From an uncultured Acidobacteriota bacterium (GTDB lineage: Bacteria; Acidobacteriota; Blastocatellia; RBC074), in assembly GCA_902825875.1 (NCBI GenBank), contig CADECP010000019.1:78359-142358 (forward strand): a stretch of 64,000 bases of DNA. The letters run 5' to 3'. Made by a program: the position numbers and the translations under genes. The notes beneath the pieces were generated by a model, which saw only the letters and a program-made list of their open reading frames with translations, did no database searches and was not told the origin of the DNA. Numbering within the stretch: position 1 is the stretch's first letter; the number at the start of each line of letters is the position of its first letter. Positions 21,656 through 54,437 of this stretch are shown here, in pieces.

Positions 21656-21675
21656 GACCTTCTGATAGGTTTTTC

Positions 21676-27312: not shown

Positions 27313-27319
27313 CTGTCGA

Positions 27320-35580: not shown

Positions 35581-35586
35581 ACTTCG

Positions 35587-37614
<2,028 letters not shown>

Positions 37615-37653
37615 GGTTCGTCTCAATGTGGTTGGTTTTAAGAAGGAATAACG

Positions 37654-38409: not shown

Positions 38410-38427
38410 TGACATAAGTGGTGACAA

Positions 38428-39336
38428 ATGAGTCAGCCGGAAAATTTTGAGATTAATGGGTTGCCGGACGCTTTATCGAGCTTGGTGACAGAGTTCGGAG
38501 CAGTTGATTCGCAGGCGATTGCCTTCAGCTTCGCAGCGCCGACGAAAGAATGTATTGCTTCACTGACGCAGCCGACGATCAATTTTTTTCTCTTCGACAT
38601 TCGTGAAAACACGGAAAAGCGCGAGGTCAATCCGCAGGTGTTTCGGCGGGTCGCAGAGAAAGAAGGCGGGCGGAAGATGCCTCCCAGGCGGATGGATTTG
38701 AGTTATCTGGTCAGCGTCTTTGCCAGCGATGCGCGCGATGAACTGGCTTTGTTGTGGCGAGTGACGGCGGTGTTGATGCGGCATCCGGTGTTGCCGGAAG
38801 AGGTGATGCCGGAAGAGTTGAAAGAGAATTTGCGGCGGATGGACGCGCAGATCACGGCTCGATTGCATGAAAAAGAATCGGGGCGCGATTTGTTGGAATG
38901 GTGGACGGCTTTGGGAGTGACGCCGCGCGCTTCGCTGCATTACGTGGTGACTGTGCCGCTTGATCTGGAAAGCGAATTGAAATCGAAACTGGTGTTGTCG
39001 TGGCAATTGCGCGTCGGTGAAATCGAAGCGCGCGACCCGAAGCAGTCCGAGGTTGTAGAGCAATTCGGCGGCAGAATTTACAACCAGCGTCGCCAACCGC
39101 AGCAAAACCTGACTGTCAGTTTGCAAACTGACGCGCAGGAAAAGAACCGGCAGCGGCGCGTCGTTGTCGAAGAGCGTCAAACAGGCAAAGACGGTCGTTA
39201 CGATTTTCGTCTTTATGAAAACGCGATGAAGCTGACGCTGACGATTTCGCGCGAAGGGAATGTTTTGAAAAGGTTTGAGCATTCGGGCGCCACGCCGCCG
39301 GATGAGTGGAGAGAAGTCATTTTGGATGTCAATTGA
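38428..39336 (+). CDS. DUF4255 (Afp16/Pvc16-like tail terminator/cap) protein, long paralogue
   Basis: 'TQPTINFFLFDIRENTEKRE', 'MDLSYLVSVFA' and 'ASLHYVVTVPLDLE' match the DUF4255 pattern. The C-terminal ~90 aa 'GGRIYNQRRQPQQNLTVSL...TGKDGRYDFRL' resemble a carboxypeptidase-regulatory-like beta-sandwich. Confidence 0.75.
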   Translation: MSQPENFEINGLPDALSSLVTEFGAVDSQAIAFSFAAPTKECIASLTQPTINFFLFDIRENTEKREVNPQVFRRVAEKEGGRKMPPRRMDLSYLVSVFASDARDELALLWRVTAVLMRHPVLPEEVMPEELKENLRRMDAQITARLHEKESGRDLLEWWTALGVTPRASLHYVVTVPLDLESELKSKLVLSWQLRVGEIEARDPKQSEVVEQFGGRIYNQRRQPQQNLTVSLQTDAQEKNRQRRVVVEERQTGKDGRYDFRLYENAMKLTLTISREGNVLKRFEHSGATPPDEWREVILDVN

Positions 39337-39377
39337 CAATGAGGTTGTCATGTCGGCTGCAAAGTTTTGAAACAATA

Positions 39378-39402
39378 AAACGCGAGCGGGAGGCTCGCGT
39401 TT
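39378..39402 (+). promoter_or_regulatory. Intra-operon hairpin just upstream of the sheath gene
   Basis: 'aaacgcgagc' - loop 'gggag' - 'gctcgcgttt' forms a 10-bp stem. It sits in the only long (88-nt) spacer of the operon, immediately before the AAAGGAGG RBS of the sheath gene. An upstream 'ttgaca' and the small palindrome 'tgacaa-tgagg-ttgtca' lie at 39334-39350. Confidence 0.45.
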
Positions 39403-39424
39403 CAATCACAAAGGAGGTTTGACC

Positions 39425-40996
39425 ATGCCTGAATACTTGTCGCCCGGAGTTTACATCGAAGAGGTCAACACTGGCCCTCGCCCGATTGAAGGCGTGGGCA
39501 CGTCCTGCGCGGCGTTTGTCGGTTTTGCCGCAACCGGGCCGATCAACGAACCCCAACTCATCAGCAATTGGATGCAATATGTCGAAACGTTTTGCGACGT
39601 CAAAAACGGGCGCCGGGACGGCAGTTTTCAGATTCCGCATAAAACCGAACAGGGCACTATGGTCAACACTTATCTGGGGCAATCTGTCCGAGGTTTTTTC
39701 AATAACGGAGGCGGGCGTTGTTATGTTGCTCGCGTTGGAGATTATTCGTTGGGAACCAAACCGATTCTGCAAATTCCCAAACAGGACGGCAACGCGACTT
39801 TATTGACCATTGAAGCGAAAGAGGGAGCGACACGAAACATCAAGGTCGAAATCGCGTCCGCCGAAGGCGAAAACCCGCCTGCCGGAAGTTTCACGATGAT
39901 CGTCACGCCTGAAGGCAGCGGCGCGCCGGAACGATACGAAAACGTATTGCCGAAAGCGGATGGGGAAAACAGCATTGTCACCAAAGTTCAGGAACGTAGC
40001 CGATTGATTACGGTTACGGTTGTCGCCACAGGGCCGATCGCGCAACGCACGTTACAAACGGGGACTTACCCATTGAACGTAACTTCTCCTGCAATGGAAG
40101 TTTCAGTGCAATCAAAAGATTTCATCGGTGATGCCGGCGAACGCAAAGGCATTGAAGGAATGCAGGTGGCCGAAGAAGTGACGATGTTATGTTGCCCTGA
40201 TCTGATGGCGGCTCATCAAGCCGGGTACCTGAATGACGACGGTGTGCTGCAAGTGCAGCAGGCAATGATTACTCATTGCGAATTGATGAAGGATAGGTTG
40301 GCGATTCTGGACACGCCCTACAACAAAGTGAAGCCGGACGATGTTCGGAAATGGCGCATCGCCGCCGGATTCAACTCGAAATTCGCGGCCTTGTATTATC
40401 CGTGGATCAGCGTTTCGGGCGCGGACGGAAAATTGATGGACGTTCCCCCAAGCGGTTATATCGCGGGCATATATGCGCGCAGCGACCGGGAGCGTGGCGT
40501 TCACAAAGCTCCTGCCAATGAAAACGTGCGCGACGCAGTCAGAGTCAGTGTTCAATTAACCAAAGGCGAGCAGGATACGTTGAACCCTGAAGGGGTCAAT
40601 TGCATTCGCGTGTTTCCCAATCAAGGCGTGACGGTGTGGGGAGCGCGGACTTTAAGCGATGACGCCGCCTGGCGATACATCAACGTTCGTCGCTTGTTCA
40701 ATTACGTCGAAAAATCAATTGAACGCGGGACGCAATGGGTGGTCTTTGAACCCAACGACCATGATTTGTGGGCGCGCGTTCGGCGAGACGTGACGGCGTT
40801 TCTGACCGGCGTATGGCGCAGCGGAGCATTGTTCGGGCACAAACCCGAAGAAGCCTTTTACGTTAAATGCGATGAGGAATTGAATCCTGAATCCGTTCGC
40901 AATGAAGGCAAGCTGGTTGTGGAAATCGGCCTAGCTCCGGTCAAACCGGCGGAATTCGTCATCTTTCGCCTGAGCCAGTTTAGCGGCGGCGCGTAA
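39425..40996 (+). CDS. Contractile tail sheath protein
   Basis: 'MPEYLSPGVYIEEVNTGPRPIEGVGTSCAAFVGFA' is the canonical sheath N-terminus. The C-terminal 'VNCIRVFPNQGVTVWGARTLS...WRYINVRRLFNYVEKSIERGTQWVVFEPND' is the conserved sheath C-domain. Confidence 0.9.
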   Translation: MPEYLSPGVYIEEVNTGPRPIEGVGTSCAAFVGFAATGPINEPQLISNWMQYVETFCDVKNGRRDGSFQIPHKTEQGTMVNTYLGQSVRGFFNNGGGRCYVARVGDYSLGTKPILQIPKQDGNATLLTIEAKEGATRNIKVEIASAEGENPPAGSFTMIVTPEGSGAPERYENVLPKADGENSIVTKVQERSRLITVTVVATGPIAQRTLQTGTYPLNVTSPAMEVSVQSKDFIGDAGERKGIEGMQVAEEVTMLCCPDLMAAHQAGYLNDDGVLQVQQAMITHCELMKDRLAILDTPYNKVKPDDVRKWRIAAGFNSKFAALYYPWISVSGADGKLMDVPPSGYIAGIYARSDRERGVHKAPANENVRDAVRVSVQLTKGEQDTLNPEGVNCIRVFPNQGVTVWGARTLSDDAAWRYINVRRLFNYVEKSIERGTQWVVFEPNDHDLWARVRRDVTAFLTGVWRSGALFGHKPEEAFYVKCDEELNPESVRNEGKLVVEIGLAPVKPAEFVIFRLSQFSGGA

Positions 40997-41029
40997 GGTT
41001 CAGTCAACCAACAGAAACGGAGGATCAAG

Positions 41030-41470
41030 ATGCAAGAAAAAGACCCGGTAGTTTCGTCGTGGTTCGGTGTCGAGTTTCAAGGCCAGGTGGTGGGTGCGTT
41101 TCGGGAATGCACGGGAATGGGCAGCGAAAACGAAGTCGTTGAATACAAAGCCAGCGGACCCAAAGGCGAATTCGTCATCAAGAAAGTTCCCGGTCGCATG
41201 AAGTGGAACAATATCACTCTTAAACGCGGCATTACCGACGCGATGGACATGTGGAAATGGCGCAAGATGATCGAAGACGGCGAAATTGACGCTGCGCGAA
41301 AGAATGGTTCAATCGTTATGTACAACCAGGCCGGTCAGGAAGTCGCGCGTTGGGATTTCGTCAACGCCTGGCCGTCGAAACTCAGCGGCCCGACAGCCAA
41401 CGCCAACAACAACGAAGTGGGAATCGAAGAACTGGAAATCACCCACGAAGGATACAAGCGCGTGAAATGA
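41030..41470 (+). CDS. Tail tube protein (T4 gp19-like / Afp1-like)
   Basis: 'FGVEFQGQVVGAFRECTGMGSENEVVEYK...KKVPGRMKWNNITLKRGIT...WKWRK...FVNAWPSKLSGP' matches the gp19-family CIS tube pattern. Confidence 0.85.
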   Translation: MQEKDPVVSSWFGVEFQGQVVGAFRECTGMGSENEVVEYKASGPKGEFVIKKVPGRMKWNNITLKRGITDAMDMWKWRKMIEDGEIDAARKNGSIVMYNQAGQEVARWDFVNAWPSKLSGPTANANNNEVGIEELEITHEGYKRVK

Positions 41471-41500
41471 CCGGTTAACCACGAGAGCGACGCCTGATTT

Positions 41501-41878
41501 ATGCCGACAACCTTGCAGACCGAATATGAATTCACCTTGCCGCGGGGCTACGTTGACGCGCAGGGCAATTTGCATCGGCGCGGAATCATGCGGCTGGCAA
41601 TGGCGCGGGACGAAATCGAACCTATGGCCGATCCGCGCGCGCAAGCCAATGAATCCTACCTTGCGATTTTGTTGCTGGCGCGTGTAGTCACACGGTTAGG
41701 AGAAGTTTCTCCCGTCAGCCCCGCTGTGATCGAAAACTTGTACGCGGCGGATTTTGCTTACTTGCAAGATGTTTATCTGCGGCTCAACGACGACGCCAGC
41801 CGTTGGATTGCCACCGAATGTCCGAACTGCCAAACGCGGTTTGAACTGGACCTGTTGAGTGAAGATGCCAGCGAATAA
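41501..41878 (+). CDS. Probable tail assembly chaperone (P2 gpE-like by position and pattern)
   Basis: It lies directly after the tube gene, as in P2 (FII then E). 'RRGIMRLAMARDEIEPMAD...ILLLARVVTRLGEVSPVSPAVIENLYAADFAYLQDVY' resembles gpE-type chaperones. It has a C-terminal 'ECPNCQTRFELD' Cys pair. Confidence 0.5.
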   Translation: MPTTLQTEYEFTLPRGYVDAQGNLHRRGIMRLAMARDEIEPMADPRAQANESYLAILLLARVVTRLGEVSPVSPAVIENLYAADFAYLQDVYLRLNDDASRWIATECPNCQTRFELDLLSEDASE

Positions 41879-42062
41879 TTCAATCACGGCAGGCGATGAT
41901 GCGGAACTGAAAAATATGACAAGCCGGAACGACGGTTTGGAATCCGAGCCGGACGATCCGCAGATTGATCTGCGACTGCTGACAGACAAGGTTTATCTGT
42001 TGATGCAACAGGAAGCCCGATTGGATCGCTCACGAAATGGGGAAATTCTGTGGAGGAGATGA
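41865..42062 (+). CDS. Small acidic protein overlapping the chaperone gene 3' end
   Basis: The ATG at 41865 lies inside the last codons of the upstream gene. The product ends with 'IDLRLLTDKVYLLMQQEARLDRSR', a motif shared with the C-terminus of the 552-aa protein. Coding status is supported mainly by operon packing. Confidence 0.4.
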   Translation: MPANNSITAGDDAELKNMTSRNDGLESEPDDPQIDLRLLTDKVYLLMQQEARLDRSRNGEILWRR

Positions 42063-42068
42063 CCGTTG

Positions 42069-42509
42069 ATGGCTAACAAATCCAATACTGAAAACGACGC
42101 TAATCCGTCGTGTCGCTTTTATGTGGATGTTGGCGGCAAGAAGCAGGCCTTGTTTACGGAAGTCGGTGGACTGGGCTTGGAGATGGAATTTCAGGAAGTG
42201 CGCGAAGGCGGAAACAATCATTTTGTGCATCGGCTGCCTGGCCCCTGCAAGACGGGAAATCTTGTTTTGCGGGGCGGGTTGTCGTCGTCGAGCGAGTTTT
42301 TCAAATGGATGATGGACGCGGCGCACGGAAAAATCGAACGCAGGAACATTTCCGTCATCCTTTACGATCCGATGGGCAAAGAACAAGCGCGATGGAATTT
42401 CAACAATGCTTTTCCGGTGAAATGGACTGGGCCGCAGTTCAAAGCCAACGACGTCACTGTGGCCATTGAATTGCTGGAAATCGCCCACGAAGGCTTAAAG
42501 ACCGATTGA
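42069..42509 (+). CDS. Second tail tube-family protein (Afp5-like)
   Basis: 'CRFYVDVGGKKQALFTEVGGLGLEMEFQEVREGGNNHFVHRLPGPCKTGNLVLRGGL...FNNAFPVKWTGPQFKAND' is paralogous to the 41030-41470 product. Confidence 0.85.
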   Translation: MANKSNTENDANPSCRFYVDVGGKKQALFTEVGGLGLEMEFQEVREGGNNHFVHRLPGPCKTGNLVLRGGLSSSSEFFKWMMDAAHGKIERRNISVILYDPMGKEQARWNFNNAFPVKWTGPQFKANDVTVAIELLEIAHEGLKTD

Positions 42510-42515
42510 CGCTTT

Positions 42516-44174
42516 ATGTTACGGCAATCTTTTTTGCGAACCATCAACCATCCGGCGCGAAAACTGGCAAAACGCAAATTGTCCGCGCGGTTGCCGGCGT
42601 ATTTGCGGCGACATTCTTCCAGGAAGTTTTTGCGACAAACAGGTTTGGCGGTCAGCAAAGTTTCGAGATTCGGTTATGGTCGCAGATTTGCGCTTTCGCG
42701 CGCGCTGTCGGATTTGTCGTCTGTGTCGTTTCCCGCCGCGATGGAATCTTTCGACTCGGCTGACTTGGCTCAGTCGTTTGCGCCGAAAGAGCCTGAAGCC
42801 TTGGTCGAGCAATTGCCAGATACCGTTGCCGCTTTGCAGGCGCATGAGCCTGAGGGAATTTTCCACGAAGCCGCCGAGATTGCGGAATCGGCCAAGCAAA
42901 ATTTCGACGCGCCAAGTTTAACGGTTTCGACAATTCCTGAGATTCATTCCTTGCCGGTTAGGCAAAGTCGTATTGAGGAGATAGAAAAATCGGCAAGCAA
43001 TTTTTTGAGCGCAAAGACGGCAATGGAAACGCCGTTACCGGAAGTTCCGCGCCTGGTCGAATCAGAACCGGCGAATCTTTTGAAAACGATTGATCCGGTC
43101 ATTCGTGGCAGGCAATCCGACCAATCCAACCAGCCCGACCGCGCTGAATTGTTTGCCGACACTGGCGAAGATCGTTCGCCTGCGGCTTGGGCGGCCAAAC
43201 TGGCCGGATTCGGCGGCGGCAATTCAGTTTCAAATCGGCAAGCTCAAGAAGATGATTCGCGCGGCTTACGGCGACCGGCTCTCAAACCATTTGCTGGCGC
43301 AATTGAGAAAACGCCGGATTCGCCCAAGCGGTTTTCCGCCAAAGCCGGGCGAGTTTTGTCTCCTTTGGTCGAATCCTCAATGGCAATTGAAACCGCGACG
43401 AAGTCTCTGAGCGCGCAGAGCGATGACAAACCGCCGCCCATTCACCACGACGGCGCAGGGCGCAACTCTGACGACGTTCCCCCAAACGTGGAGCCATGGG
43501 TTTCCGCTCCGCTGGTGAAAAAAACTGTTCCCGCGGTTGTTCGGGCTGCGATTGAAAACGATGAAATTATGCCGTCACGGTTTATTAAGGCGGTTGGCGC
43601 AACATTGCCATTGGCCGGAAAACCGTTGGCCGCTATGCCTGATCTTTTGTCGGAGTCCGAGTTGCCGGAAATGGCCGATTTCCAACCTAAAGTTGAGTCG
43701 CTGCCTGAAAGTTTTTCAGCGGTTGGTCTGGCAGACGCCGTCCCTCAACTTCAGAGCGCCGATTGGCCAGAGCATTCCGCCGACTTGCGTTTATCAAATG
43801 TTGCGTCGTTTGACGCGCCGAAACAGCAAGTTGGAGAAGAAACTGATTGGGGCGGTCTGCCTGCTCCTTGGGAAGCGTTGCCGGACTGGGCGGCTTCGAT
43901 CAACAACGATGAGCGTAGAAACCCCGAAGTTTCACCGTCCGAAAGTTTGCTGAACCAGGGACTGGCTGACAACGCGCCAAAAGGCGATTGGGACACGCCT
44001 GTCGACGAAGCGGAAAATTCGTTTGCGGAATTTGCAGGAGCGAGCCAGGCAATGATGAGTTTGGCAGAACCTGCGTCCAGCCGATTGGAAATAGATTTGG
44101 ACGGTTTGGCCAAACAGGTGTATCAACGATTGAAACGGCGGTTGGCCGCTGAACGCCGCCGCGAGGCGTATTAA
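42516..44174 (+). CDS. Disordered acidic P/A/S/E-rich protein in the tape-measure position
   Basis: The slot between tube/chaperone and tube-initiator corresponds to P2 gpT or Afp14. It has a basic N-terminus 'RKLAKRKLSARLPAYLRRHSSRKFLRQ', a long low-complexity acidic body and the C-terminal motif 'IDLDGLAKQVYQRLKRRLAAERRREAY'. Confidence 0.5.
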   Translation: MLRQSFLRTINHPARKLAKRKLSARLPAYLRRHSSRKFLRQTGLAVSKVSRFGYGRRFALSRALSDLSSVSFPAAMESFDSADLAQSFAPKEPEALVEQLPDTVAALQAHEPEGIFHEAAEIAESAKQNFDAPSLTVSTIPEIHSLPVRQSRIEEIEKSASNFLSAKTAMETPLPEVPRLVESEPANLLKTIDPVIRGRQSDQSNQPDRAELFADTGEDRSPAAWAAKLAGFGGGNSVSNRQAQEDDSRGLRRPALKPFAGAIEKTPDSPKRFSAKAGRVLSPLVESSMAIETATKSLSAQSDDKPPPIHHDGAGRNSDDVPPNVEPWVSAPLVKKTVPAVVRAAIENDEIMPSRFIKAVGATLPLAGKPLAAMPDLLSESELPEMADFQPKVESLPESFSAVGLADAVPQLQSADWPEHSADLRLSNVASFDAPKQQVGEETDWGGLPAPWEALPDWAASINNDERRNPEVSPSESLLNQGLADNAPKGDWDTPVDEAENSFAEFAGASQAMMSLAEPASSRLEIDLDGLAKQVYQRLKRRLAAERRREAY

Positions 44175-44201
44175 GCGGAAACTCAGCAAGGAGTCAAAGC
44201 A

Positions 44202-44879
44202 ATGAGCGCAGCGGGATTGGCGAAAGCGATTATTGTCAAATTGGATAAACAGAACCGTCCGGTTCAATCCGAATCGGTCAAGGTGATGTTCAATCCCAAA
44301 GAACTGGTTTTTACAAAGCATAACACCTGGAAACAGGGAGAAACGCCTCAAGCCAATGTGCCTGATTTTGAATTCGGCAGCGGCGGGGCGACGACGCTGA
44401 CGCTGGAATTGTTTTTTGACACTTACGCCGAACGAAAAGACGTTCGCAAAGTGTACACCGACGCCATTTACAAAATGACGCTGGTGGACGAGCGGTTGAT
44501 TGACGAGAAGACCAAAAAAGGCCGTCCGCCGACGGTTCGGTTTCAATGGGGGCAAACAGTCGGTTTTGACGCGGTGATTGCCAGCATTACTCAACGGTTC
44601 ACGCTGTTTTTGCCGGATGACGGAATGCCCGTGCGGGCGACGGTGAACGTAACTTTTTCGCAGGTTAAAGACGCGCTGTTTTATCCGCGCCAAAACCCGA
44701 CTTCAGGCGGCGCGGGCGGAGAACGTATTTACACCGTCAAAGAAGGCGACACGCTGACCTGGATTGCGTTCAATGAATACAACGATGCGACTCAATGGCG
44801 GCGGATTGCCGACGCAAATGAATTGACCCAAATACGGCGACTGATTCCGGGCGCCAAGCTGGTGATTCCTCATGCATGA
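44202..44879 (+). CDS. CIS tube-initiator-like protein with C-terminal LysM domain (Afp7/Pvc7-like)
   Basis: The N-terminal 'AKAIIVKLDKQNRPV...VKVMFNPKELVFTKHNTW...FEFGSGGATTLTLELFFDTY' matches the tube-fold initiator pattern. The C-terminal 'YTVKEGDTLTWIAFNEYNDATQWRRIADANEL...PGAKLVIP' is a LysM domain. Confidence 0.8.
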   Translation: MSAAGLAKAIIVKLDKQNRPVQSESVKVMFNPKELVFTKHNTWKQGETPQANVPDFEFGSGGATTLTLELFFDTYAERKDVRKVYTDAIYKMTLVDERLIDEKTKKGRPPTVRFQWGQTVGFDAVIASITQRFTLFLPDDGMPVRATVNVTFSQVKDALFYPRQNPTSGGAGGERIYTVKEGDTLTWIAFNEYNDATQWRRIADANELTQIRRLIPGAKLVIPHA

Positions 44880-46515
44880 ACAAGGGCAACTCATCACTCA
44901 TTTTCGATTGATCTTGGGCGGGCGGGACGCGCCGGAAGAATTGATGTCCGCAGCTCTCGAAATCGCGGTGGAAAGCAGTTTGCACATGCCGGATGTGGCC
45001 ACTCTGGTCATTCACGATCCACGGTTGTTATGGATTGACAGCGATTTGCTCAAACCTGGCCAGGAATTGAAAGTCTCGGTGACTGACCTAATCAGCGGAC
45101 GTGAATCGCGCGAACCGATCTTTGACGGCGAAATTGTGGAGATCGAGCCGGAATTCACGTCGGAGACGCATTCGTTGACAATTCGCGCATTTGACCGATT
45201 GCACAGGTTGACGCGGGGACGGCGAGTACGTTCGTTTCAGAATGTGACCGACGGCGACGTTGCGCGCTTAATTGCCAACGAAGTGCGATTGGAAACTGAA
45301 GTCGCCGAAACTCGCCGCGTTCATTCTTATTTGCTGCAATGCAATCAGACCAATCTGGAATTTTTGCGTGAACGAGCTGCCGCGCTTGGTTATTTGCTTT
45401 ATGCGCAGGGCAAGAAGCTGTGTCTCAAACCGCTCAAGCATGAAGAGCAGATCGAACTGCAATGGGGAAAAAGTTTGTTGGAATTTCGTCCGCGCCTGAC
45501 GACGTTGTCGCAAGTGGACACGGTGCAAGCGCGCGGTTGGGACCCAATCACGCGACAAGAATTATTGGCGCAAGTCAGTGACGGGCAGGGAATGCGCGAA
45601 ATTGGCCAGAAACAATCCGGCGGCAAGCTGGTCAAACAGTTGTTTCGGTTGGAAACTAGCCATCTGATTGTTGAGCGTCCGGTTCGATCTCAATCGGACG
45701 CCGAAAATCTGGCGCAGGCAACAGCCGATCGTGTCGCCGAAAGTTTCGTTGAAGCCGAAGGCGTTTGTGTTGGCAAGCCGGAATTGGTTGCGGGCGTTTC
45801 CATTATGGTTAGCGCCGTTGGCCAACAATTCGGCGGCAAGTATTTCGTGACATCGGCTTCGCATGTTCATAACGCCCGTGACGGATACGTCACACGATTC
45901 ACGATTTCCGGCCAATCGCCTTCTTCGTTGCTTCGGCTATTGCGTCCGGAAAAGGAAAGCCGTTCATCCGAATTTTTTCTGACGCTCGGCTTGGTTACGG
46001 ACAATAACGACCCGGAAGGATGGGGGCGGGTTCGCGTGAAATATCCGGGATTATCGTCCGATCACACCAGCGATTGGGCGCGAGTCGTGGCTGTTGGCGG
46101 CGGGCCGAGCCGCGGCATTGAGTTCCTGCCTGAAGTTAATGACGAAGTGTTGATCGGATTTGAAATGGGCGACGTGCATTTTCCGTATGTGCTCGGCGGG
46201 TTGTGGAACGGCCAGGACGATCCGCCGAAAAAGAGCGATCAAATCGTCGGCAATGGGCGTGTTCGCCAACGCATCATTCGTTCGCGCAGCGGCCATGTGA
46301 TTACGCTCGACGATGACAACGGAGGCATTTCGCTGACGGATCGCGACGGCAATCGGGTTCAAATAAATAGCAAAGGCATTGTCATGGCTCATCAAAACGG
46401 AAACAGCCTGACGCTTGAGTCAGGCAAGCTGGACATCAACGTCAAAGGCAATGTTTCGATCAAATCCACAGGCGAAGTCAGCATCAACGGTGCGCTTGTC
46501 AAACTCAATTGTTAA
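44872..46515 (+). CDS. gpD / VgrG-like spike-hub protein (Afp8-like)
   Basis: N-terminal late-control-D-like region. 'GLVTDNNDPEGWGRVRVKYPGLSSDHTSDWARVVAVGGGPSRGIEFLPEVNDEVLIGFEMGDVHFPYVLGGLWNG' is the gp5/VgrG OB-fold signature. It has a short beta-helix tail, and its start overlaps the LysM gene stop. Confidence 0.85.
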   Translation: MHEQGQLITHFRLILGGRDAPEELMSAALEIAVESSLHMPDVATLVIHDPRLLWIDSDLLKPGQELKVSVTDLISGRESREPIFDGEIVEIEPEFTSETHSLTIRAFDRLHRLTRGRRVRSFQNVTDGDVARLIANEVRLETEVAETRRVHSYLLQCNQTNLEFLRERAAALGYLLYAQGKKLCLKPLKHEEQIELQWGKSLLEFRPRLTTLSQVDTVQARGWDPITRQELLAQVSDGQGMREIGQKQSGGKLVKQLFRLETSHLIVERPVRSQSDAENLAQATADRVAESFVEAEGVCVGKPELVAGVSIMVSAVGQQFGGKYFVTSASHVHNARDGYVTRFTISGQSPSSLLRLLRPEKESRSSEFFLTLGLVTDNNDPEGWGRVRVKYPGLSSDHTSDWARVVAVGGGPSRGIEFLPEVNDEVLIGFEMGDVHFPYVLGGLWNGQDDPPKKSDQIVGNGRVRQRIIRSRSGHVITLDDDNGGISLTDRDGNRVQINSKGIVMAHQNGNSLTLESGKLDINVKGNVSIKSTGEVSINGALVKLNC

Positions 46516-46531
46516 GTTCAGGAGTGATTCT

Positions 46532-46801
46532 ATGCCTTGTCTTCCTGCTGCCAAGTTGGGCGATCAAATTGTTTCTCGGCGCACTTACGTCATCGCTACG
46601 CTGGTTGAAATCAGCGTTTTGATCGAAGGAAGACCCGCAGCCGTTCAAGGCAGCGGCGATTCCGACAAAGCGCAAATCCTTAGCGGCAGCTTGACGGTCT
46701 TGGTTGGCGGCAAAATGGCCGCCCGCGCGACTGACCCGGCCAACACGGACAAAGGGCCGGGCAATGTGATCGCTCCATTGGGCACGGTTTTGATTGGATA
46801 G
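46532..46801 (+). CDS. PAAR-domain spike tip protein
   Basis: ATG 46532 follows an AGGAG RBS. Three PAAR-like repeats: 'LPAAKLGD', 'RPAAVQGSGD' and 'KMAARATD'. The ORF-track start at 46415 overlaps the spike gene and is unlikely. Confidence 0.8.
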   Translation: MPCLPAAKLGDQIVSRRTYVIATLVEISVLIEGRPAAVQGSGDSDKAQILSGSLTVLVGGKMAARATDPANTDKGPGNVIAPLGTVLIG

Positions 46802-46813
46802 GAGAAAACAGCG

Positions 46814-47224
46814 ATGGAAGATTTTTTAGGCAACGGATGGACGTTCCCGACCGGCGTGGATGCGCACGGGCGTATTGCGTTGGCTCGGCAGGAAAACGAC
46901 ATTGAACAAGCCATAAGGATCATTCTGATGACTCCGAAAGGGCAGCGTGTCATGCGCCCCAATTTCGGATGTGGCATTCACGATTTGCTGTTTGCGCCGA
47001 ACGATTCCGCCACCGCCGGACTGGCCGCGCATTACGCCGAAGACGCATTGCGAATGTGGGAGCCGCGCATTCGCGTGTTGGAAGTCAAAGCCGAGCGCGA
47101 TCCGAATCAGCCTGAGTGTTTGTTGATTGAAGCTCTGTATGAAGTGAAAGCCACGCTTGATCGCCGTTCGCTGGTGTTTCCTTTTTACAGCATTCCCGGA
47201 GAAGAAAACGAATTGCGCCCTTGA
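46814..47224 (+). CDS. Baseplate wedge protein, GPW/gp25 family (Afp9-like)
   Basis: 'GWTFPTGVDAHGRIALARQENDIEQAIRIILMTPKGQRVMRPNFGCGIHDLLF' is the gp25/GPW lysozyme-like core. Confidence 0.85.
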   Translation: MEDFLGNGWTFPTGVDAHGRIALARQENDIEQAIRIILMTPKGQRVMRPNFGCGIHDLLFAPNDSATAGLAAHYAEDALRMWEPRIRVLEVKAERDPNQPECLLIEALYEVKATLDRRSLVFPFYSIPGEENELRP

Positions 47225-47243
47225 TTGTCGCAGAGGATGATTT

Positions 47244-49286
47244 ATGCCTTTACCCGCGCCGGAACTGGACAACAGAACTTCGCAAAGCATAGTGGACGAA
47301 GCGAAGCGATTGATTCCACAGTTTTGTCCCGAATGGACGGATCACAATGTCAGCGATCCGGGCGTGACGCTGATAGAGCTGTTCGCCTGGATGACCGAAA
47401 TGCTGTTGTATCGCGTCAATCAGGTTCCCGCTAAAAACTACATCAAGTTTCTGGAAATGCTTGGTTTGAAATTGCGCCCGCCCCAAGCAGCCGAAGCCAA
47501 TGTCACATTTTATCTTTCGGCTCCGCTCGACGAATTGTCATCCGAGCCAAAACTGGAAGCCGGGACTGAAATCGCCACTGTTCGCACGGAACTGAAAAAC
47601 GCCGTAGTCTTTTCCACTCTTGAAGACCAGAATCTGCGTTCGCCTCAACTGAGCAACGCATTGACTTACAGCCGACGTTCTGGAGCCGACGAAAGGATTC
47701 AACACGATTTGAAAGCGCTGCGCGATCTGGATGGCGTCATAACGATGTTTTCCAATCCGCCGGTTCATGCCGACGATGGCCGCGAAGGAGACGCCTTTTA
47801 TCTGGTTTTCTCCAACAATATCAGTCGGCATGTGATTTCGCTTTCATTGAAATTTCGCGAGGGGGAAGTGGTTGGGGTCACTTCAGACGATCCGCCGATT
47901 GTCTGGCAAGCCTGGAGCAACAACGAATTGAACTGGGTCAATTGTCCGTTGGAACGAGACGGAACGCGCGGATTGACGCGCAATGGAGAAATCGTCCTGC
48001 GGTTGCCTGAGATGGCGAAAAAGACCGAACAAGGCGTGACCGGATACTGGCTGCGATGTTCATTGACCAAACCTGTCGCTGGCCAACACGAGTATTTGAA
48101 TTCTCCTGCTTTGCGGCGGGAAATTCGCGCCAAGACTCTGGGCGCAACGATTCGAGCGAAACACGCCGCGACGGCGTTGGACGAATTTCTGGGCGTCAGC
48201 GACGGTTCTCCGGGACAAAGTTTCCAGTTTCCTCACTTTCCGTTGTTGGAGCGCAATCCGCAATCGGATTATCTGAATGTGATTGGAGAACCGGATCAAA
48301 GCGATTGTGCAGTTTGGGCTGAAGTCGGCGATTTTGGCGATTCGAACGAAAACAGTTTGCATTACACGATTGACGATTTGACCGGAACGCTCAGCCTGGG
48401 GCCGGCGTTGCGACAACCTAACGGCAGCGTGCGACGATTTGGCAAAGTTCCGGCGCGCGGAGCTGAATTGCGGTTCAAGCGATACAGTTACGGCGGAGGG
48501 ACTGAAGGCAATGTGGCGGCAGGATTCATCGTCGTGATGAAATCAGCCAAATCGTACATTTCAAAAGTCATCAATTGGGAACCTTCCGTTGGCGGACGCG
48601 ACGCCGAATCTTTGGAACAAGCCATTCTGCGCGTTCCTGCCATGTTGCGCTCTCACGAACGCGCCGTCACCGTCGAAGATTACGAATATCATGCCAAAAC
48701 AATTGCCGGAGTCGCTGACGCTTATTGCGTCGGACCTGGCCTGATTCGAGAAAACGAAATGGCTACGGAAGCAGATAAAAAGAAATCTTACGGCGCCGAA
48801 CTTCCCAAGCCCGGTGAGGTTCACGTCTACATTCTTCCGCAAGTCGCGCACACAGATTCTTTGCGGTTTGAGCAGCTTAAGTTGGACGAAACAGTTCGAC
48901 AACGCGCGCAGTCCGAATTGCAAAGCCGCTCTGTCCTTGGCGTGACGGTCAAAGTGATGCCGGTGAAGATCGTGGAAATTTCCGTCGAAGCCAAATTGGT
49001 CAACCGGGATCGAACCAACGGCGAAAATTTGAAACGTCAGGCGCAGGAAGCCATCAAACGATTTTTGAACCCTTTCACTGGCGGTCCAAAAGGCAATGGT
49101 TGGCGACAAGTTTCAGTGCTGCACAAATCCGATTTGTATCGGTTGCTGCTGAATCTGCCGATGGTCGAACACATCGAAGAAATTTTCATCAAACGCGGTC
49201 CAGCCGGAGAAAACATTCCAGCAGCTTTGGAATTGGGTGGAATCGTTGTTTGTTCCGGCGAACATCAGATTGAAATCGTGAGGTGA
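47244..49286 (+). CDS. Baseplate J-like protein (P2 gpJ / T4 gp6 / Afp11-like)
   Basis: 'LDNRTSQSIVDEAKRLIPQFCPEWTDHNVSDPGVTLIELFAWMTEMLLYRVNQVP' and C-terminal 'GGRDAESLEQAILRVPAMLRSHERAVTVEDYE' are conserved baseplate-J motifs. Confidence 0.85.
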   Translation: MPLPAPELDNRTSQSIVDEAKRLIPQFCPEWTDHNVSDPGVTLIELFAWMTEMLLYRVNQVPAKNYIKFLEMLGLKLRPPQAAEANVTFYLSAPLDELSSEPKLEAGTEIATVRTELKNAVVFSTLEDQNLRSPQLSNALTYSRRSGADERIQHDLKALRDLDGVITMFSNPPVHADDGREGDAFYLVFSNNISRHVISLSLKFREGEVVGVTSDDPPIVWQAWSNNELNWVNCPLERDGTRGLTRNGEIVLRLPEMAKKTEQGVTGYWLRCSLTKPVAGQHEYLNSPALRREIRAKTLGATIRAKHAATALDEFLGVSDGSPGQSFQFPHFPLLERNPQSDYLNVIGEPDQSDCAVWAEVGDFGDSNENSLHYTIDDLTGTLSLGPALRQPNGSVRRFGKVPARGAELRFKRYSYGGGTEGNVAAGFIVVMKSAKSYISKVINWEPSVGGRDAESLEQAILRVPAMLRSHERAVTVEDYEYHAKTIAGVADAYCVGPGLIRENEMATEADKKKSYGAELPKPGEVHVYILPQVAHTDSLRFEQLKLDETVRQRAQSELQSRSVLGVTVKVMPVKIVEISVEAKLVNRDRTNGENLKRQAQEAIKRFLNPFTGGPKGNGWRQVSVLHKSDLYRLLLNLPMVEHIEEIFIKRGPAGENIPAALELGGIVVCSGEHQIEIVR

Positions 49287-49292
49287 AATCGC

Positions 49293-49763
49293 GTGCATCA
49301 ACCCAGTTCTTACCTGCATTACCTGCCTGTTATTTTTCAAACCGACGAATTTCTTGGGCGCTTTTTGCGCATATTTGAAACGGTTTGGGAACCGTTGGAA
49401 CAGCGTCAGAATCACCTTGCTTCGTATTTCGATCCGGCGACCTGCCCGACGAACTTTTTGCCCTGGCTGGCCAGTTGGTTCAATTTGCCGTTCAGCGAAA
49501 ACTGGCCTGAATCTCAACAGCGGTTGTTGGTCAAACAGGGTTTCAGGTTGAGCCGACGCAGTGGAACTCTGGTCGGATTGGAAACCATTCTGGAATTGTG
49601 CGTAGGTCAAAAACCGACCATCGTCCAATCGCCTGACGATCATTTTGTCTATCGAATCTCTCTGATTTTGCCTGCTCAGCCGGAAGTGACTGAAGCGTTT
49701 CTTCATCAAATCATTCAACTTCATAAACCCGCTTTCATTGGCTACACGTTGGAGGTGAAATGA
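49293..49763 (+). CDS. P2 gpI-like baseplate protein (short Afp12 equivalent)
   Basis: 'SYLHYLPVIFQTDEFLGRFLRIFETVWEPLEQ...YFDPATCPTNFLPWLASWFNL' matches the Tail_P2_I pattern. GTG start. Confidence 0.8.
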   Translation: MHQPSSYLHYLPVIFQTDEFLGRFLRIFETVWEPLEQRQNHLASYFDPATCPTNFLPWLASWFNLPFSENWPESQQRLLVKQGFRLSRRSGTLVGLETILELCVGQKPTIVQSPDDHFVYRISLILPAQPEVTEAFLHQIIQLHKPAFIGYTLEVK

Positions 49764-51799
49764 TGGCTACGATCACTGTGATTGATTCTGAAGGAAAAGT
49801 GGATTTCAACTTTCCGTTAGCTGATAAACCTGTCAGGCTCGGAAAAGGAGAGAACTGCAACAAGGTCTTGCCGGAATTGCCAGTCAGTGGGCCGCAATTG
49901 GAAATCGAATACGACGCCGGCCAAAACCGCTTGCTGGCAAGGCGGCTCAGTTCAGACTGCGAAGTCTGGATCGGCGACCAACGAATCGGTGACGGAAGCG
50001 CAATTTGGCCTGCGGAAATCGAATTGCGAATTGGGACGTATCGGTTGACGAACGACCTTGGCTCTGCGAATAGGCCAATTTCCGCTCAAGATGGATTTTC
50101 TGTTGAGATCAAGTCAGGAGAGGATTATTTGAGCCTGACTCCTGGCGCTCCGATGAATTGTTCGTTGCGGATCACCAACCAAAGCGCCCGTAACGTCACC
50201 GGAGCTTTGCACGTGGAAATCAATGGCCAACCTATCAAGTGGTGCGCCGGTGCCGGAAACATGGGACGGGCGTTTACGCCGTATGAAGAGCGAACCTTTA
50301 CATTGACCTTTACTGCTCCAACCGACTCGACGGTAAAAGCAGGAACGTATCAAGTGGATGTAACAGCCATCCCTGATTCCAAAGTAGAAAAGTTTCGTTC
50401 GGGAGGTGATTCTCTTACTGCCATCGTTGAACGCTTTCCTCAACATTCCCAGCGAATAGACCGGCTGTTACGGTTCAACCCGCTGTTTGGCTTCATTTTC
50501 CGTTCAGCCCGCTTCAATTTCGAAGTCAACAACACTGGCAATTGCGACGATACGTATTCGTTGGCCACTGCGCCGAATTCCGATTCCGACGAACGCACCG
50601 AATACCAATTCACCGACACGGGAGCGCCGAAAACCTCGTTGGAAGCGGCAGTCGGCAATGTCAATGCAGCTCAGCTTCAGGTTCAACGGCCATTGCTCTG
50701 GTTTCCGTTGTGGAAGGGCCATCGCTTCAACGCTTCGATTGCGAATAGCGCAAATCAAATCGTCAGGTTCACGCAACTTTCCGTGGTTTGGCTGATTTTG
50801 GTTACAGGTTTGTTGGGTTGGCTTGGATGGCATGCAGGAATGATATTGCTGAAACCAAAGTTTGAGATTGAGAAGACCGGTTTCAAGCCGGATAAAATTG
50901 AAGCTGGCGATAAAGTTGAAGTTTTCTGGAAAGCGCTCCGCGCTTCTACTGTTGATATTTATCAAGTTATGGGAAATCAACAGCAGCCAAAATCACTTTT
51001 GCAGAATCGTGCCGGATCGTCCGAAGGAGAAGAGATAGGACCTTTTGAAAAGGATATTGAACTCCTGTTTATCGCCAGGAATTTTTGGGGAGAAGATCGC
51101 ACAACACTTCCCATACCTGTTGGCTTTCAAGAAGCGACGATTCGTTTCATCACAGAAAATCCCAAGAGGCTACAACTTACCGAAACTGGGAGCGTGGATA
51201 TGTCCGTTGAATTTGAGGTTGTCAAAGGGAAATTCATCAGCGAAGTCACTATCAATGGAGATCCGGTGACTGAAGTGGCCGGTAAATATTCGTACCCAAT
51301 ATCACCTGAAGGTTCTAAACAGTACGTTGTTGAAGTCCGTTACTCTAACAGTCAAAAGGTGACGAAGGATACTTTTCGGGTAATCGTTGACAAGCCTACT
51401 CCTACACCTTCAGCTACTCCGACGCCATCCCCGACGCCGCTTACAGATTGTAGTCTCAGCGCCATTTGGCCTGCCACAGTGGTGGAAAGGATGGAAAGGA
51501 GGAGAAACGCCACAAACATTCATCGAGGCGACATGATTGACCTGAAATGGGAAGTCAGAGACGCAGATAGAATTAAGATCACACAGCAGACCGACGGAAA
51601 CGGACCGACTACTTTTTTGGAAAGCACGCGCGTAGCGGATAAGCAAGAAGTCATACCGCCACTGAAGCGTAGTACCACCTTTACACTCATTGCGTTCAAA
51701 AATGGCCAACAGACAATATGCAATTCAGTAAGAATTGTAGTCAATTGCAAGGATCGCAGCCTGACAAATCTTTTGGGTGAATGGAAACCCTGTAGGTAG
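49760..51799 (+). CDS. Single-pass membrane protein with degenerate FHA-like N-domain and Ig-like modules, in the tail-fibre slot
   Basis: The start overlaps the gpI-like stop (ATGA). There is no signal peptide, and the TM segment is 'FTQLSVVWLILVTGLLGWLGWHAGMILL' (aa ~338-364). It has FHA-like spacing at the N-terminus, CARDB/NEW3-like strings 'SLRITNQSARNVTGALHVEING' and 'TFTLTFTAPTDSTVKAGTYQVDVTAIP', a 'PTPTPSATPTPSPTP' linker, and two related post-TM modules ('GDKVEVFWKALRASTVDIYQV' and 'GDMIDLKWEVRDADRIKITQQ'). Confidence 0.6.
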   Translation: MMATITVIDSEGKVDFNFPLADKPVRLGKGENCNKVLPELPVSGPQLEIEYDAGQNRLLARRLSSDCEVWIGDQRIGDGSAIWPAEIELRIGTYRLTNDLGSANRPISAQDGFSVEIKSGEDYLSLTPGAPMNCSLRITNQSARNVTGALHVEINGQPIKWCAGAGNMGRAFTPYEERTFTLTFTAPTDSTVKAGTYQVDVTAIPDSKVEKFRSGGDSLTAIVERFPQHSQRIDRLLRFNPLFGFIFRSARFNFEVNNTGNCDDTYSLATAPNSDSDERTEYQFTDTGAPKTSLEAAVGNVNAAQLQVQRPLLWFPLWKGHRFNASIANSANQIVRFTQLSVVWLILVTGLLGWLGWHAGMILLKPKFEIEKTGFKPDKIEAGDKVEVFWKALRASTVDIYQVMGNQQQPKSLLQNRAGSSEGEEIGPFEKDIELLFIARNFWGEDRTTLPIPVGFQEATIRFITENPKRLQLTETGSVDMSVEFEVVKGKFISEVTINGDPVTEVAGKYSYPISPEGSKQYVVEVRYSNSQKVTKDTFRVIVDKPTPTPSATPTPSPTPLTDCSLSAIWPATVVERMERRRNATNIHRGDMIDLKWEVRDADRIKITQQTDGNGPTTFLESTRVADKQEVIPPLKRSTTFTLIAFKNGQQTICNSVRIVVNCKDRSLTNLLGEWKPCR

Positions 51800-51838: not shown

Positions 51839-51889
51839 AAAACCGCAACTGCCACGGCATCTGCTGCCGGACGGTTGCGGTTTTCTTTT
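51839..51889 (+). terminator. Terminator hairpin closing the CIS operon
   Basis: 'aaaaccgcaac' (51839-51849) pairs with 'gttgcggtttt' (51874-51884), followed by 'ctttt'. It lies 40 nt after the last CIS-operon stop. Confidence 0.6.
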
Positions 51890-51980
51890 GCAACCGTCGC
51901 CAGCTTGCGCCGATGCTGGCCTCTGCTGATAATGCCCGCTATCTTCAAAGCTTCTCGAAAAGGGAATCAGTAACAACACA

Positions 51981-54276: not shown

Positions 54277-54437
54277 CAATTCAGGAAAATGTTTTTCCCG
54301 CGAATGAACGCAGATACCTGGGAAAACTGCTCAATTGCCATAGTCGGGGGACGAGGTCGCTGATTCTCAAACCTGGAAAACCACTTCTTACAATTCGCGT
54401 TATCCGCTTGATTCGCGGGAAGGTAAAAGCTCAATAG

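Follow-up and report, generated by a model that had tools for sequence, protein, structure and literature searches.

Streptomyces cells undergo a regulated death brought about by cytoplasmic contractile injection systems (CIS). The membrane adaptor of the Streptomyces system, CisA (SCO4242), crosses the membrane once with its N-terminus in the cytoplasm; firing depends on it, it has a predicted interaction with Cis11, and its C-terminal domain of ~150 aa is conserved (PMC12237407). Its gene occupies a slot matching that of the gene described here (PMC12237407, PMC10020575). CisA is the one known membrane-coupling factor and has no close homologue beyond actinomycetes, an absence for which a 2026 hot-spring study left the firing mechanism open, and when species of Roseiflexus, Calidithermus and Deinococcus, with D. 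aquatilis and C. chliarophilus among them, were imaged by cryo-ET, their particles were unattached and free in the cytoplasm (PMC12998442). For the thylakoid-anchored CIS of Anabaena, Cis13, a TM-bearing protein of the fibre slot, was found to hold the baseplate to the membrane (PMC8894136). Our searches for CIS or eCIS together with FHA, kinase or Cis12/Afp12, which took in the literature outside subscription, returned only type VI papers, and the protein family presented below is undescribed there.

The window, which is the whole 64,000-nucleotide stretch of DNA analysed, comes from an uncultured Acidobacteriota bacterium and carries a CIS operon on its forward (+) strand, to which all coordinates refer. 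Matches to Pfam, NCBIfam and PDB sequences identify, from 34996..47224, a Pvc16_N cap, an AAA ATPase, an unknown 251-aa protein, a second Pvc16_N protein and the sheath, followed by a tube, a small protein, another tube, a 552-aa protein and a LysM tube initiator, and finally a VgrG-like spike, PAAR and gp25. The baseplate J-like Cis11 follows (47244..49286), then Cis12. Compared with the S. coelicolor structures 8bky and 9gtp, the sheath matched with E 5e-155, Cis11 with E 4e-121 (to 9gtp) and Cis12 with E 1e-12, whereas PVC, AFP and the Anabaena tCIS were far poorer matches (E 1e-54 for the Anabaena sheath). The nearest Cis11 relatives are from Blastocatellales, Terriglobia, Chloroflexales and Deinococcales. 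Judged by these similarities, the system belongs with the Streptomyces-type, lineage IId-like cytoplasmic CIS, in what appears to be a Blastocatellales-like acidobacterium; the comparison to cytoplasmic Streptomyces CIS made in an earlier, sequence-only reading of this DNA was thereby borne out by sheath, Cis11 and Cis12 alike.

The target gene (49760..51799), the last of the operon, encodes a 679-aa, predicted bitopic protein of the form FHA-Ig-Ig-TM-Ig3. At the junction tGGAGGtgaaATGAtggct, the start codon is the ATG at 49760, the preceding 156-aa ORF stops with the TGA at 49761-49763, and a GGAGG Shine-Dalgarno sequence occupies 49751-49755, so that the ATGA overlap with a gpI-like stop (49760-49763), noted in the sequence-only reading, can be read directly. 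The upstream ORF is a short Cis12 (49293..49763), a Tail_P2_I / TIGR02242 protein by Pfam and NCBIfam, with a PDB sequence match and no FHA domain; the target slot is therefore the one after gpI, as had been proposed. This is the slot of a fibre, and none of the genes in the locus looks fibre-like, which also agrees with that proposal. The operon ends at a strong intrinsic terminator (51839..51892) whose hairpin (-27.6 kcal/mol, z -5.3) leads into a U tract; a simple terminator scan missed it because of its long loop, and folding recovered it.

The N-terminal domain (aa 1-100; 49760..50059) has an FHA fold with degenerate phosphothreonine-binding residues. An AlphaFold2 (AF2) model of aa 1-112 (pLDDT 87, pTM 0.79) matches the FHA fold, which in PF00498 is an eleven-stranded beta sandwich, and superimposes on the Ki67 FHA domain with an rmsd of 2.1 A, and in a Foldseek search of the PDB the top 50 matches were all FHA domains (TM 0.65-0.83). 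By sequence, Pfam FHA (PF00498) was not matched by the target at E up to 0.1, and the orthologue at locus L006 reached 17.9 bits, short of the gathering score of 20.7; sequence homology to FHA becomes visible only when the family profile is aligned with the Pfam-positive FHA domains of distant members. Motif alignments show the phosphothreonine site altered from GR to GK, from SxxH to SGPQ and from NG to DC (GK29, S43-G-P-Q46, D66-C67), that is, Arg is replaced by Lys29, His by Gln46 and Asn-Gly by Asp-Cys, with Ser43 kept. The sequence-only reading, which had suggested an FHA-like N-terminus with canonical Arg, Ser and His all substituted, was thus right about the fold, Arg and His, and wrong about Ser. 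Orthologues have N, D or F at the Ser43 position. Throughout the window clade the His is Gln, and the Arg is Lys except in L006; in the other FHA domains of the locus set, His is kept in nearly all and Arg in most.

Next comes a NEW3/CARDB-like beta sandwich (aa 112-226; 50093..50437), presumably on the cytoplasmic side, recognised from model strands, the NPCBM_assoc/NEW3 matches of homologues and a weak choice_anch_T match. The second Ig-like, FixG_C-like sandwich (aa 232-335; 50453..50764) rests on FixG_C matches in homologues; it is strongly conserved in an alignment of the target with its close homologues (A1), and the region 221-344 was modelled with pLDDT <50. Direct Pfam and NCBIfam searches of the target protein gave no FHA, NEW3 or fibre match, only weak TRAPPC13_C and choice_anch_T matches, and the CARDB/NEW3-like strings perceived earlier gain their support from the NPCBM_assoc/NEW3, FixG_C and CARDB matches of homologues. 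Beyond the membrane segment lie beta module 1 (aa 366-456; 50855..51127) and beta module 2 (aa 457-545; 51128..51394; pLDDT 80-86), both modelled and both probably periplasmic, a Pro/Thr-rich linker (PT linker; aa 546-562; 51395..51445), evident in sequence and alignment, and Ig-like module 3 (563-667) with a tail (together aa 563-679; 51446..51796), defined by alignment, hhalign and homologues. Module 1 is related to module 3 (hhalign 85 %, E 6e-6), and profile-profile comparison with hhalign detected no relatedness between module 1 and the adjacent module 2. Two related modules after the TM had been expected; relatedness was found, between modules 1 and 3, but there are three modules and the adjacent pair is unrelated. 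The PT linker and the Cys-containing C-terminus are present as described, with Cys564, Cys654, Cys663 and Cys678 invariant in alignment A1, and the periplasmic cysteines are probably disulphide-bonded. Two leads were discarded: the sole match in a PDB sequence search of the target, internalin K, is an artefact of the PT linker, and Foldseek with the full-length model (pTM 0.28) gave generic multi-Ig proteins (complement C3, contactins), which are uninformative.

Between the two halves of the protein is a single predicted transmembrane helix (aa 337-364; 50768..50851). The hydrophobic segment F337-L364 is the only one, there is no N-terminal hydrophobic stretch, and AF2 models it as a helix over residues 342-363, in accord with the claim of one very hydrophobic segment and no signal peptide. 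Its Kyte-Doolittle 19-residue maximum of 1.90 is moderate; it is the highest among all 16 CIS proteins of the window and is reached by 7 of 421 background ORFs of related loci. The place of the TM, ~330 aa past the FHA start, is kept in >50 homologues. Among 56 family members, K+R on the two sides number 101 and 107, a lack of bias from which the positive-inside rule cannot set the topology. An N-in, C-out orientation is suggested instead by the homologues, since the N-terminal half of the target corresponds by homology to what comes after the cytoplasmic kinase domain of kinase-fused relatives, where kinase and FHA domains would both be cytoplasmic.

A profile search of 1.84 billion proteins revealed what kind of protein the target derives from. 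Full-length matches begin at about residue 310-340 of 940-960-aa proteins, which have the order Pkinase-FHA-NEW3/FixG_C-TM-ectodomain; for example, in P0011 profile positions 4-677 aligned to residues 311-933 (E 1e-34). The target aligns with this family over the full FHA-Ig-Ig-TM length, with the TM at the family's position, and many members also match Pfam Yop-YscD_cpl. Close homologues of the target are 35-58 % identical and have the architecture intact. Peptide patterns taken from alignment A1 were too specific to pick up any relatives in a genome scan; a Cis11 re-scan and tblastn on the loci recovered them. A word-index search with a Chloroflexales homologue gave seven matches, with no Roseiflexus protein among them.

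Linkage of the family to CIS loci is strict, true of the homologues examined wherever a contig showed the context, in line with the sequence-only reading. The five close homologues and that of L006 each lie just after a short Cis12, and distant homologues lie directly 3' of Cis12 in CIS loci from three phyla, Acidobacteriota, Chloroflexota and Deinococcota, with Deinococcus deserti among the carriers. Among 56 Cis11-anchored loci with enough downstream sequence, an FHA membrane protein is next after Cis12 in 13-14 and farther downstream in a further 11. Independent look-ups were CIS-linked in all seven informative cases (P0011, P0021, P0012, P0019, P0067, Calidithermus roseus and Deinococcus deserti), in six with the gene directly after Cis12 and mostly with a 4-nt overlap; the P0019 contig holds only the end of the upstream gene, with PAAR and eCIS_core genes downstream. 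In Calidithermus roseus, Cis12 and the kinase adjoin as a pair even apart from the remaining cluster. The family is absent from Deinococcales loci L014-L016 and from the actinobacterial loci of the set, the latter also giving no match to the A1 profile, and it is therefore not universal in this CIS lineage.

In the loci with kinase-FHA-TM proteins, Cis12 is a fusion of FHA and Tail_P2_I, and this FHA is canonical. Of 18 lineages with FHA-Cis12, 13 have the kinase, against none of the 6 with short Cis12 (Fisher one-sided p ~0.003, uncorrected for shared ancestry). A profile built from the kinases of relatives found no Ser/Thr kinase in the entire window, and the target begins at the FHA domain. 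Within a family of kinase-FHA membrane proteins whose partner is an FHA-bearing Cis12, the target is a reduced form, and its clade no longer has the kinase, the Cis12 FHA or the phosphothreonine-binding residues; it forms the stripped-down end of the series, in which the FHA fold, two Ig domains and TM helix were retained once the signalling parts were gone. Every signalling-type feature is lost in the target, and so it could be a relic.

Several described systems resemble the target in part. CisA belongs to the same CIS lineage, judged from sheath, Cis11 and Cis12, and shares with the target the slot directly after the baseplate wedge genes of lineage IId CIS and, if the target is oriented as proposed, a single-pass form in which a large N-terminal portion precedes a C-terminal domain beyond the cytoplasm. 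The domain content, compared here from descriptions of CisA, differs: the N-terminus of CisA is largely disordered and is accompanied by a Cys-rich region and a C-terminal domain of solute-binding or carbohydrate-active-like type, whereas in the target an FHA domain is followed by two Ig-like sandwiches and by three Ig-like modules predicted to be periplasmic. The type III SctD proteins (YscD/PscD/PrgH) have the bitopic layout predicted for the target, with a cytoplasmic FHA fold that no longer binds phosphothreonine, one TM and a periplasmic part built of modules; Foldseek matches include PscD (6uid), and many family members match Yop-YscD_cpl. However, the putative periplasmic part of the target is predicted to be all-beta and Ig-like save for a short helix (572-578), in contrast to the alpha/beta ring-building motifs of SctD, two extra Ig-like domains lie between FHA and TM, and there is no sign of rings. 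Threonine phosphorylation in type VI systems (PpkA/TagE, Fha1/TagH, PppA) also places a contractile machine under the control of a membrane Hanks-type kinase and an FHA protein, and the same parts list is found in the kinase-bearing relatives paired with FHA-Cis12; the target differs in having no kinase and a degenerate FHA, the machine is not type VI, and in the relatives the wedge protein and the kinase each carry a fused FHA, in place of a separate scaffold. Anabaena Cis13 shares the fibre slot and a TM helix (predicted in the target) but is small, trimeric, fibre-like and thylakoid-targeted, with a C-terminal triple helix, and its CIS is more distant by sheath similarity than that of Streptomyces.

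Taken together with the locus comparisons, it seems on balance probable, by a little more than an even judgement, that the target is a single-pass inner-membrane accessory and docking or firing partner of the baseplate in a Streptomyces-type cytoplasmic CIS. The N-terminal 335 residues would lie in the cytoplasm as a degenerate FHA and two NEW3/FixG_C-like sandwiches, one helix would cross the membrane, and ~315 residues with three Ig-like modules, the PT linker and the cysteines would lie in the periplasm. Produced jointly with Cis12, whose reading frame its own overlaps, the protein would contact the baseplate and serve it in docking and firing as CisA does in Streptomyces. In most related systems the cassette comprises an N-terminal Hanks-type Ser/Thr kinase and a Cis12 with canonical FHA, docking being probably gated by threonine phosphorylation after the type VI PpkA-Fha1 logic; given the loss of the kinase, the Cis12 FHA and the phosphothreonine residues, the interaction in the window clade would be phosphorylation-independent. 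A membrane tether of the baseplate had been proposed in the sequence-only reading, and its CIS type, CisA-equivalent slot and CIS linkage stand, but permanent anchoring fits less well with the free particles of relatives. In Chloroflexota and Deinococcota of this CIS lineage the particles are free, and kinase-fused homologues are encoded in Deinococcus and Calidithermus genomes, which favours transient docking or a trigger over a fixed anchor.

A fixed anchor would hold the baseplate at the inner membrane, with the ~315-residue Ig chain spanning the periplasm of a type VI-like, contact-dependent device. Acidobacteriota, the host lineage, are diderm, and such an arrangement would suit the reading frame overlapping Cis12, an FHA that is phospho-independent like the cytoplasmic domain of SctD/PscD matched by Foldseek, and the long periplasmic part of beads and PT linker. 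It is nonetheless decidedly improbable, as the operon has no outer-membrane or peptidoglycan-spanning partner genes, ring-building motifs are absent, and the 4-nt overlap also occurs in kinase-bearing relatives whose congeners showed free particles. Those free particles (PMC12998442) would also fit an assembly regulator, either like type VI Fha1/TagH or a sensor, which sets when or where the CIS is assembled or expressed without binding the finished baseplate or triggering contraction. FHA proteins and membrane Ser/Thr kinases do control type VI assembly post-translationally (PMC13584744), and most family members carry the kinase; against this, the FHA on the structural wedge Cis12 links the phospho-signal to the baseplate, and the target, with no kinase, a degenerate FHA and no evident signalling output, is nevertheless conserved in identity and architecture among its close homologues, so that regulation of assembly is rather unlikely.

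The slot itself might suggest a tail fibre or receptor-binding protein, borne by a CIS that is released and acts outside the cell, with its hydrophobic segment buried or used for insertion into a target membrane; Ig-like modules and PT linkers are common in adhesins, and the slot-equivalent SCO4242 was first taken as a fibre by Vladimirov et al. (PMC10020575). But the monomer model is a string of beta sandwiches without coiled coil or beta-helical shaft, no fibre family was matched in Pfam, NCBIfam or PDB sequences, the N-terminal kinase and canonical FHA of homologues make sense only in the cytoplasm, and the lineage is cytoplasmic wherever imaged, all of which makes a fibre very improbable. 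Even smaller is the probability of a cargo or effector, or of a cell-envelope protein merely sharing the operon. Some lineage IId loci do have proposed cargo with a membrane region, such as SCO4256, in which a toxin domain accompanies a TM region and an Ig-like chaperone fold (PMC10020575), but Pfam and NCBIfam show no toxin domain in the target, the position after Cis12 is fixed in three phyla, and the Calidithermus roseus pair stays together off-cluster. The fibre, effector and unrelated-neighbour readings were rejected on these grounds: the lack of a shaft or fibre match, the kinase/FHA homologues, the lack of a toxin domain and the fixed position.

The kinase/FHA-Ig-TM family is a concrete candidate for the missing membrane-coupling or firing factor of non-actinomycete cytoplasmic CIS. 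A predicted membrane-spanning family that is strictly linked to cis12 and paired in most lineages with an FHA on the wedge points to phosphorylation-gated firing, which is unreported for non-type-VI CIS in the searchable literature, and the pair occurs in cultured organisms such as Deinococcus deserti and Calidithermus roseus, where the idea is testable. A more elaborate version, which is tentative and on the whole doubtful, joins a phosphothreonine switch in non-actinomycete lineage IId CIS to a hard-wired, permanently anchored derivative in the window clade. The membrane Ser/Thr kinase, with its own FHA and extracellular sensor modules, would phosphorylate itself or the wedge, and the Cis12-fused FHA would latch the baseplate onto the membrane protein and license firing; in the derivative, the phospho-independent FHA membrane protein would be a stoichiometric baseplate component. 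Were this so, the CIS of the window would be permanently anchored at a diderm inner membrane, an independent, type VI-like solution.

Two smaller observations concern the target gene and its last module. A few contigs in environmental RNA libraries match the gene with 100 % identity, which is a weak hint only of its transcription. The module-3 type recurs as tandem repeats in large multi-repeat proteins, and the two of these that were scanned contain I-set, lamin-tail and Por_Secre_tail domains.

The CIS locus of the window is a complete operon on the + strand (about 34996 to 51799), running from a Pvc16_N cap protein through an AAA ATPase, an unknown 251-aa protein, a second Pvc16_N protein, the sheath, a tube protein, a small gene, another tube protein, a 552-aa protein, a LysM tube initiator, a VgrG-like spike, PAAR, gp25, Cis11 (baseplate J) and a 156-aa Cis12 (Tail_P2_I) to the 679-aa target (49760-51799, +). 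The ATGA overlap of the target start with the stop codon of the gpI-like gene (Cis12), reported in the sequence-only reading, was confirmed, and a GGAGG site lies 4 nt upstream of the start. On the 3' side a hairpin with a U tract (51839-51892; -27.6 kcal/mol, z -5.3) is followed by the housekeeping genes folE, PhoD, rluB, ispH and rpsA, in the same synteny as in relatives, and the target is thus the final gene of the operon. No fibre-like gene was seen in the window's CIS locus.

The window sheath (E 5e-155) and Cis11 (E 4e-121) matched the Streptomyces coelicolor cytoplasmic CIS structures 8bky/9gtp, and Cis12 matched a 190-aa chain of the same system (E 1e-12); for all three proteins PVC, AFP, AlgoCIS and Anabaena tCIS matched far worse. 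9GTP is among the atomic models deposited with the paper on CisA (SCO4242), the S. coelicolor membrane adaptor, and in Streptomyces cisA directly follows the wedge genes (PMC12237407); an earlier study had interpreted its product as a TM-containing fibre (PMC10020575). Among species-representative genomes the closest Cis11 relatives were in Blastocatellales (59 %), followed by Acidobacteriaceae/Terriglobia (45 %), Chloroflexales (42-43 %) and Deinococcales (40-41 %). A 2026 study grouped Chloroflexota and Deinococcota CIS with those of Streptomyces (lineage IId), imaged their particles free in the cytoplasm, and considered that firing may differ there, close cisA homologues being absent (PMC12998442).

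Only five close homologues of the target (35-58 % identity) were found among 5.8 billion clustered proteins, with a sixth in a Blastocatellales MAG; each of the six is encoded after a short Cis12, within a CIS locus adjoining folE. The alignment is strongly conserved over its full length, including F337-L364, the one very hydrophobic segment noticed at the outset, whose peak (1.90) exceeds that of every other protein of the CIS cluster and is reached by only 7 of 421 background ORFs of related loci. Globally the AlphaFold2 model of the whole protein is of low confidence (pTM 0.28), but its local features are clear: an all-beta N-terminal domain (pLDDT 80-89), a beta sandwich (aa 112-226), a stretch left unmodelled (aa 221-344), a helix within the hydrophobic segment (aa 342-363), and beta modules. 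Where two related modules had been proposed after the TM helix, three were modelled (aa 366-456, 457-545 and 563-667); the relatedness stands for modules 1 and 3 by profile-profile comparison, which gave no relation of module 1 to module 2. The expected PT-rich linker does separate these modules, and the Cys-containing C-terminal domain was borne out by four cysteines conserved among homologues within the last 116 residues.

Modelled alone, aa 1-112 reached pLDDT 87 and pTM 0.79, and the best 50 PDB matches to this model were FHA domains without exception (50/50), Ki67, Rv0020c, GarA/OdhI and type III PscD included; Pfam FHA did not recognise the domain in the target sequence. Aligned with canonical relatives, the phosphothreonine-binding positions read GK, S-G-P-Q and D-C as against GR, S-R-x-H and N-G. 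Model and alignment therefore uphold the fold and degeneracy of the suspected FHA domain, but of the Arg, Ser and His thought to be substituted, the serine (Ser43) is retained.

A profile of six family sequences gave 704 matches among 1.84 billion representatives, many owed to the C-terminal Ig-like module alone, which forms tandem repeats in large proteins (with I-set, lamin-tail and Por_Secre_tail domains in the two that were scanned). About three dozen matches take in the N-terminus and all that follows up to and including the TM helix, typically beginning near residue 310-340 of 940-960-aa proteins with the Pfam architecture Pkinase-FHA-NEW3/FixG_C-TM-variable ectodomain. Such a protein follows Cis12 in Cis11-anchored loci of Acidobacteriaceae, Terriglobia, Chloroflexales, Ardenticatenales and other Chloroflexota. 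In the 56 Cis11-anchored loci with 4 kb or more of sequence downstream, an FHA membrane protein comes directly after Cis12 in 13 (14 with a frame-split Oscillochloris copy) and further downstream in 11 more. The split gene (Oscillochloris sp. ZM17-4, fetched locus L013:6878-11151; FHA 6878-7480, remainder 7450-11151) may reflect either a frameshift or a draft-genome sequencing error.

Co-occurrence of homologues with CIS loci, which had been proposed as a check, was also found in look-ups started from family proteins and not from Cis11, where all seven informative cases had CIS context (P0011, P0021, P0012, P0019, P0067, Calidithermus roseus WP_119278929.1 and Deinococcus deserti WP_012692669.1); P0014, on a 3.4-kb contig too short for context, was left out. 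Six of the seven lie directly after Cis12, usually with the 4-nt overlap of the target, and the P0019 contig holds only the tail of the upstream gene, with PAAR and eCIS_core genes downstream. In C. roseus (L092:9081-13873, QWLA01000055.1) the FHA-Cis12 and kinase-FHA-TM genes form an isolated pair flanked by housekeeping genes (ldh and an rplA/rplK/nusG block), with no further CIS genes on the 25-kb contig, an arrangement that speaks for the two proteins being a functional unit. Loci of Anaerolineales/Caldilineaceae (L030, L034, L040, L042, L043, L050, L071, L072, L079) have the same parts in another arrangement: a conserved ~380-aa protein without a TM helix follows Cis12, and a small FHA protein and an FHA-TM protein (TM near residue 405-480) are found 4-7 kb further downstream.

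In these loci of the wider family Cis12 is itself 290-385 aa long, with a canonical FHA domain fused to Tail_P2_I. This fusion, with a Ser/Thr kinase-FHA-TM protein after it, occurs in many CIS loci of Acidobacteriota, Chloroflexota and Deinococcota (L008:12032-12946, L009:12003-12950, L011:4146-5063, L012:7193-8089, L092:9081-9983, L093:9060-10004, also L017, L018 and L024), and the combination had no mention in the CIS literature searched. Among lineages of known context, 13 of the 18 with FHA-Cis12 have the kinase, as against 0 of the 6 in which Cis12 is short and lacks FHA (the window clade, that is the target and its close homologues, plus P0012), a co-variation with Fisher one-sided p ~0.003, shared ancestry being ignored. 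FHA domains of the other lineages, in Cis12 and membrane proteins alike, keep His in nearly all cases and Arg in most, whereas in the window clade His is replaced by Gln throughout and Arg by Lys in all but L006, the orthologue from the Blastocatellales MAG; P0012 has neither. By these differences in kinase, Cis12 FHA and Arg/His pattern, the target is the reduced end of a series, having lost the kinase and the Cis12 FHA, with a remaining FHA predicted to be blind to phosphothreonine and a preserved FHA-Ig-Ig-TM core and Ig-like ectodomain.

Tail fibre was rejected as the identity of the target, which is rated a variant form of CIS membrane adaptor or regulator. It resembles CisA in slot, CIS lineage and single-pass layout but differs in its domains, as compared by description; like type III SctD it has a degenerate, probably cytoplasmic FHA, a single predicted TM helix and a modular, probably periplasmic part, but is without the ring-building motifs. 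The target's relatives contain the components of the type VI threonine phosphorylation pathway, there built into the wedge protein. In the open literature, searches for CIS or eCIS with FHA or kinase gave nothing besides type VI papers, and neither is mentioned in key CIS surveys or in the Chloroflexota/Deinococcota paper (PMC12998442).

Beyond the observed architecture, fold, homology, CIS linkage and kinase/Cis12-FHA co-variation of the family, we infer that the N-terminal half is cytoplasmic, since homologous regions directly follow a protein kinase and are FHA domains, and the C-terminal half periplasmic, given its PT linker and conserved cysteines and a module type that it shares with large repeat proteins bearing extracellular-type domains. 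By analogy with the proposal for CisA, the target would bring the baseplate to the inner membrane and license firing. In kinase-bearing relatives, docking of the membrane kinase with Cis12-FHA would be gated by phosphothreonine, the membrane-kinase/FHA logic of the type VI PpkA-Fha1 pathway (PMC13584744); in the window clade the contact may be constitutive or ectodomain-controlled. Transient docking is favoured over a permanent anchor because particles are free-floating in related organisms. Acidobacteriota are diderm, and a type VI-like fixed anchor is possible in such a host. Confidence in a docking or trigger function is moderate, as the charges flanking the TM helix are uninformative for topology and the contact with the baseplate is a proposed one.

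The organism is found in wastewater, activated-sludge and biofilm metagenomes, and two environmental RNA libraries contain a few 151-nt contigs that are identical (100 %) to the target and Cis11 and hint at transcription of both, with DNA carry-over as the alternative source. The downstream block (window 51981-59319: folE, PhoD, rluB, ispH, rpsA, sppA-like) is syntenic in related loci L001-L005; kept despite 35-58 % target identity, it makes the CIS look like a long-resident chromosomal locus and not a recent insertion. Upstream of the operon are a 1108-aa TPR-CHAT (caspase-like) protein (28013-31339, +), an unknown 626-aa protein with one hydrophobic segment (31409-33289, -) and, directly adjoining, an M48 metallopeptidase with a signal-like N-terminus (33778-34971, +). 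L088 likewise has a caspase-family gene (Peptidase_C14) close to its CIS, and caspase-type genes may link the CIS neighbourhood to cell death. Just upstream of the CHAT gene are a menaquinone gene (futalosine-type VitK2_biosynth) and the F420 genes cofD and cofC (25434-27991, +), and a UvrD helicase is at 21628-24078.

Within the operon, two Pvc16_N (cap/terminator) proteins occur in one cluster (34996-35580 and 38428-39336, +), the second having a weak CarboxypepD_reg-like domain at its C-terminus. The PAAR ORF (46415-46801, +; 128 aa, TTG start) shares ~100 nt with the 3' end of the VgrG-like gene, and its true start is probably further downstream, as PAAR proteins of relatives have only 87-89 aa. 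The 251-aa protein (37654-38409, +), between the AAA ATPase and second Pvc16_N genes, gave no Pfam match; with its glycine-zipper-like stretch GIAGGAGAFGGPVGTAFAGGYAIG, it may be a cargo protein or an effector that acts on membranes.
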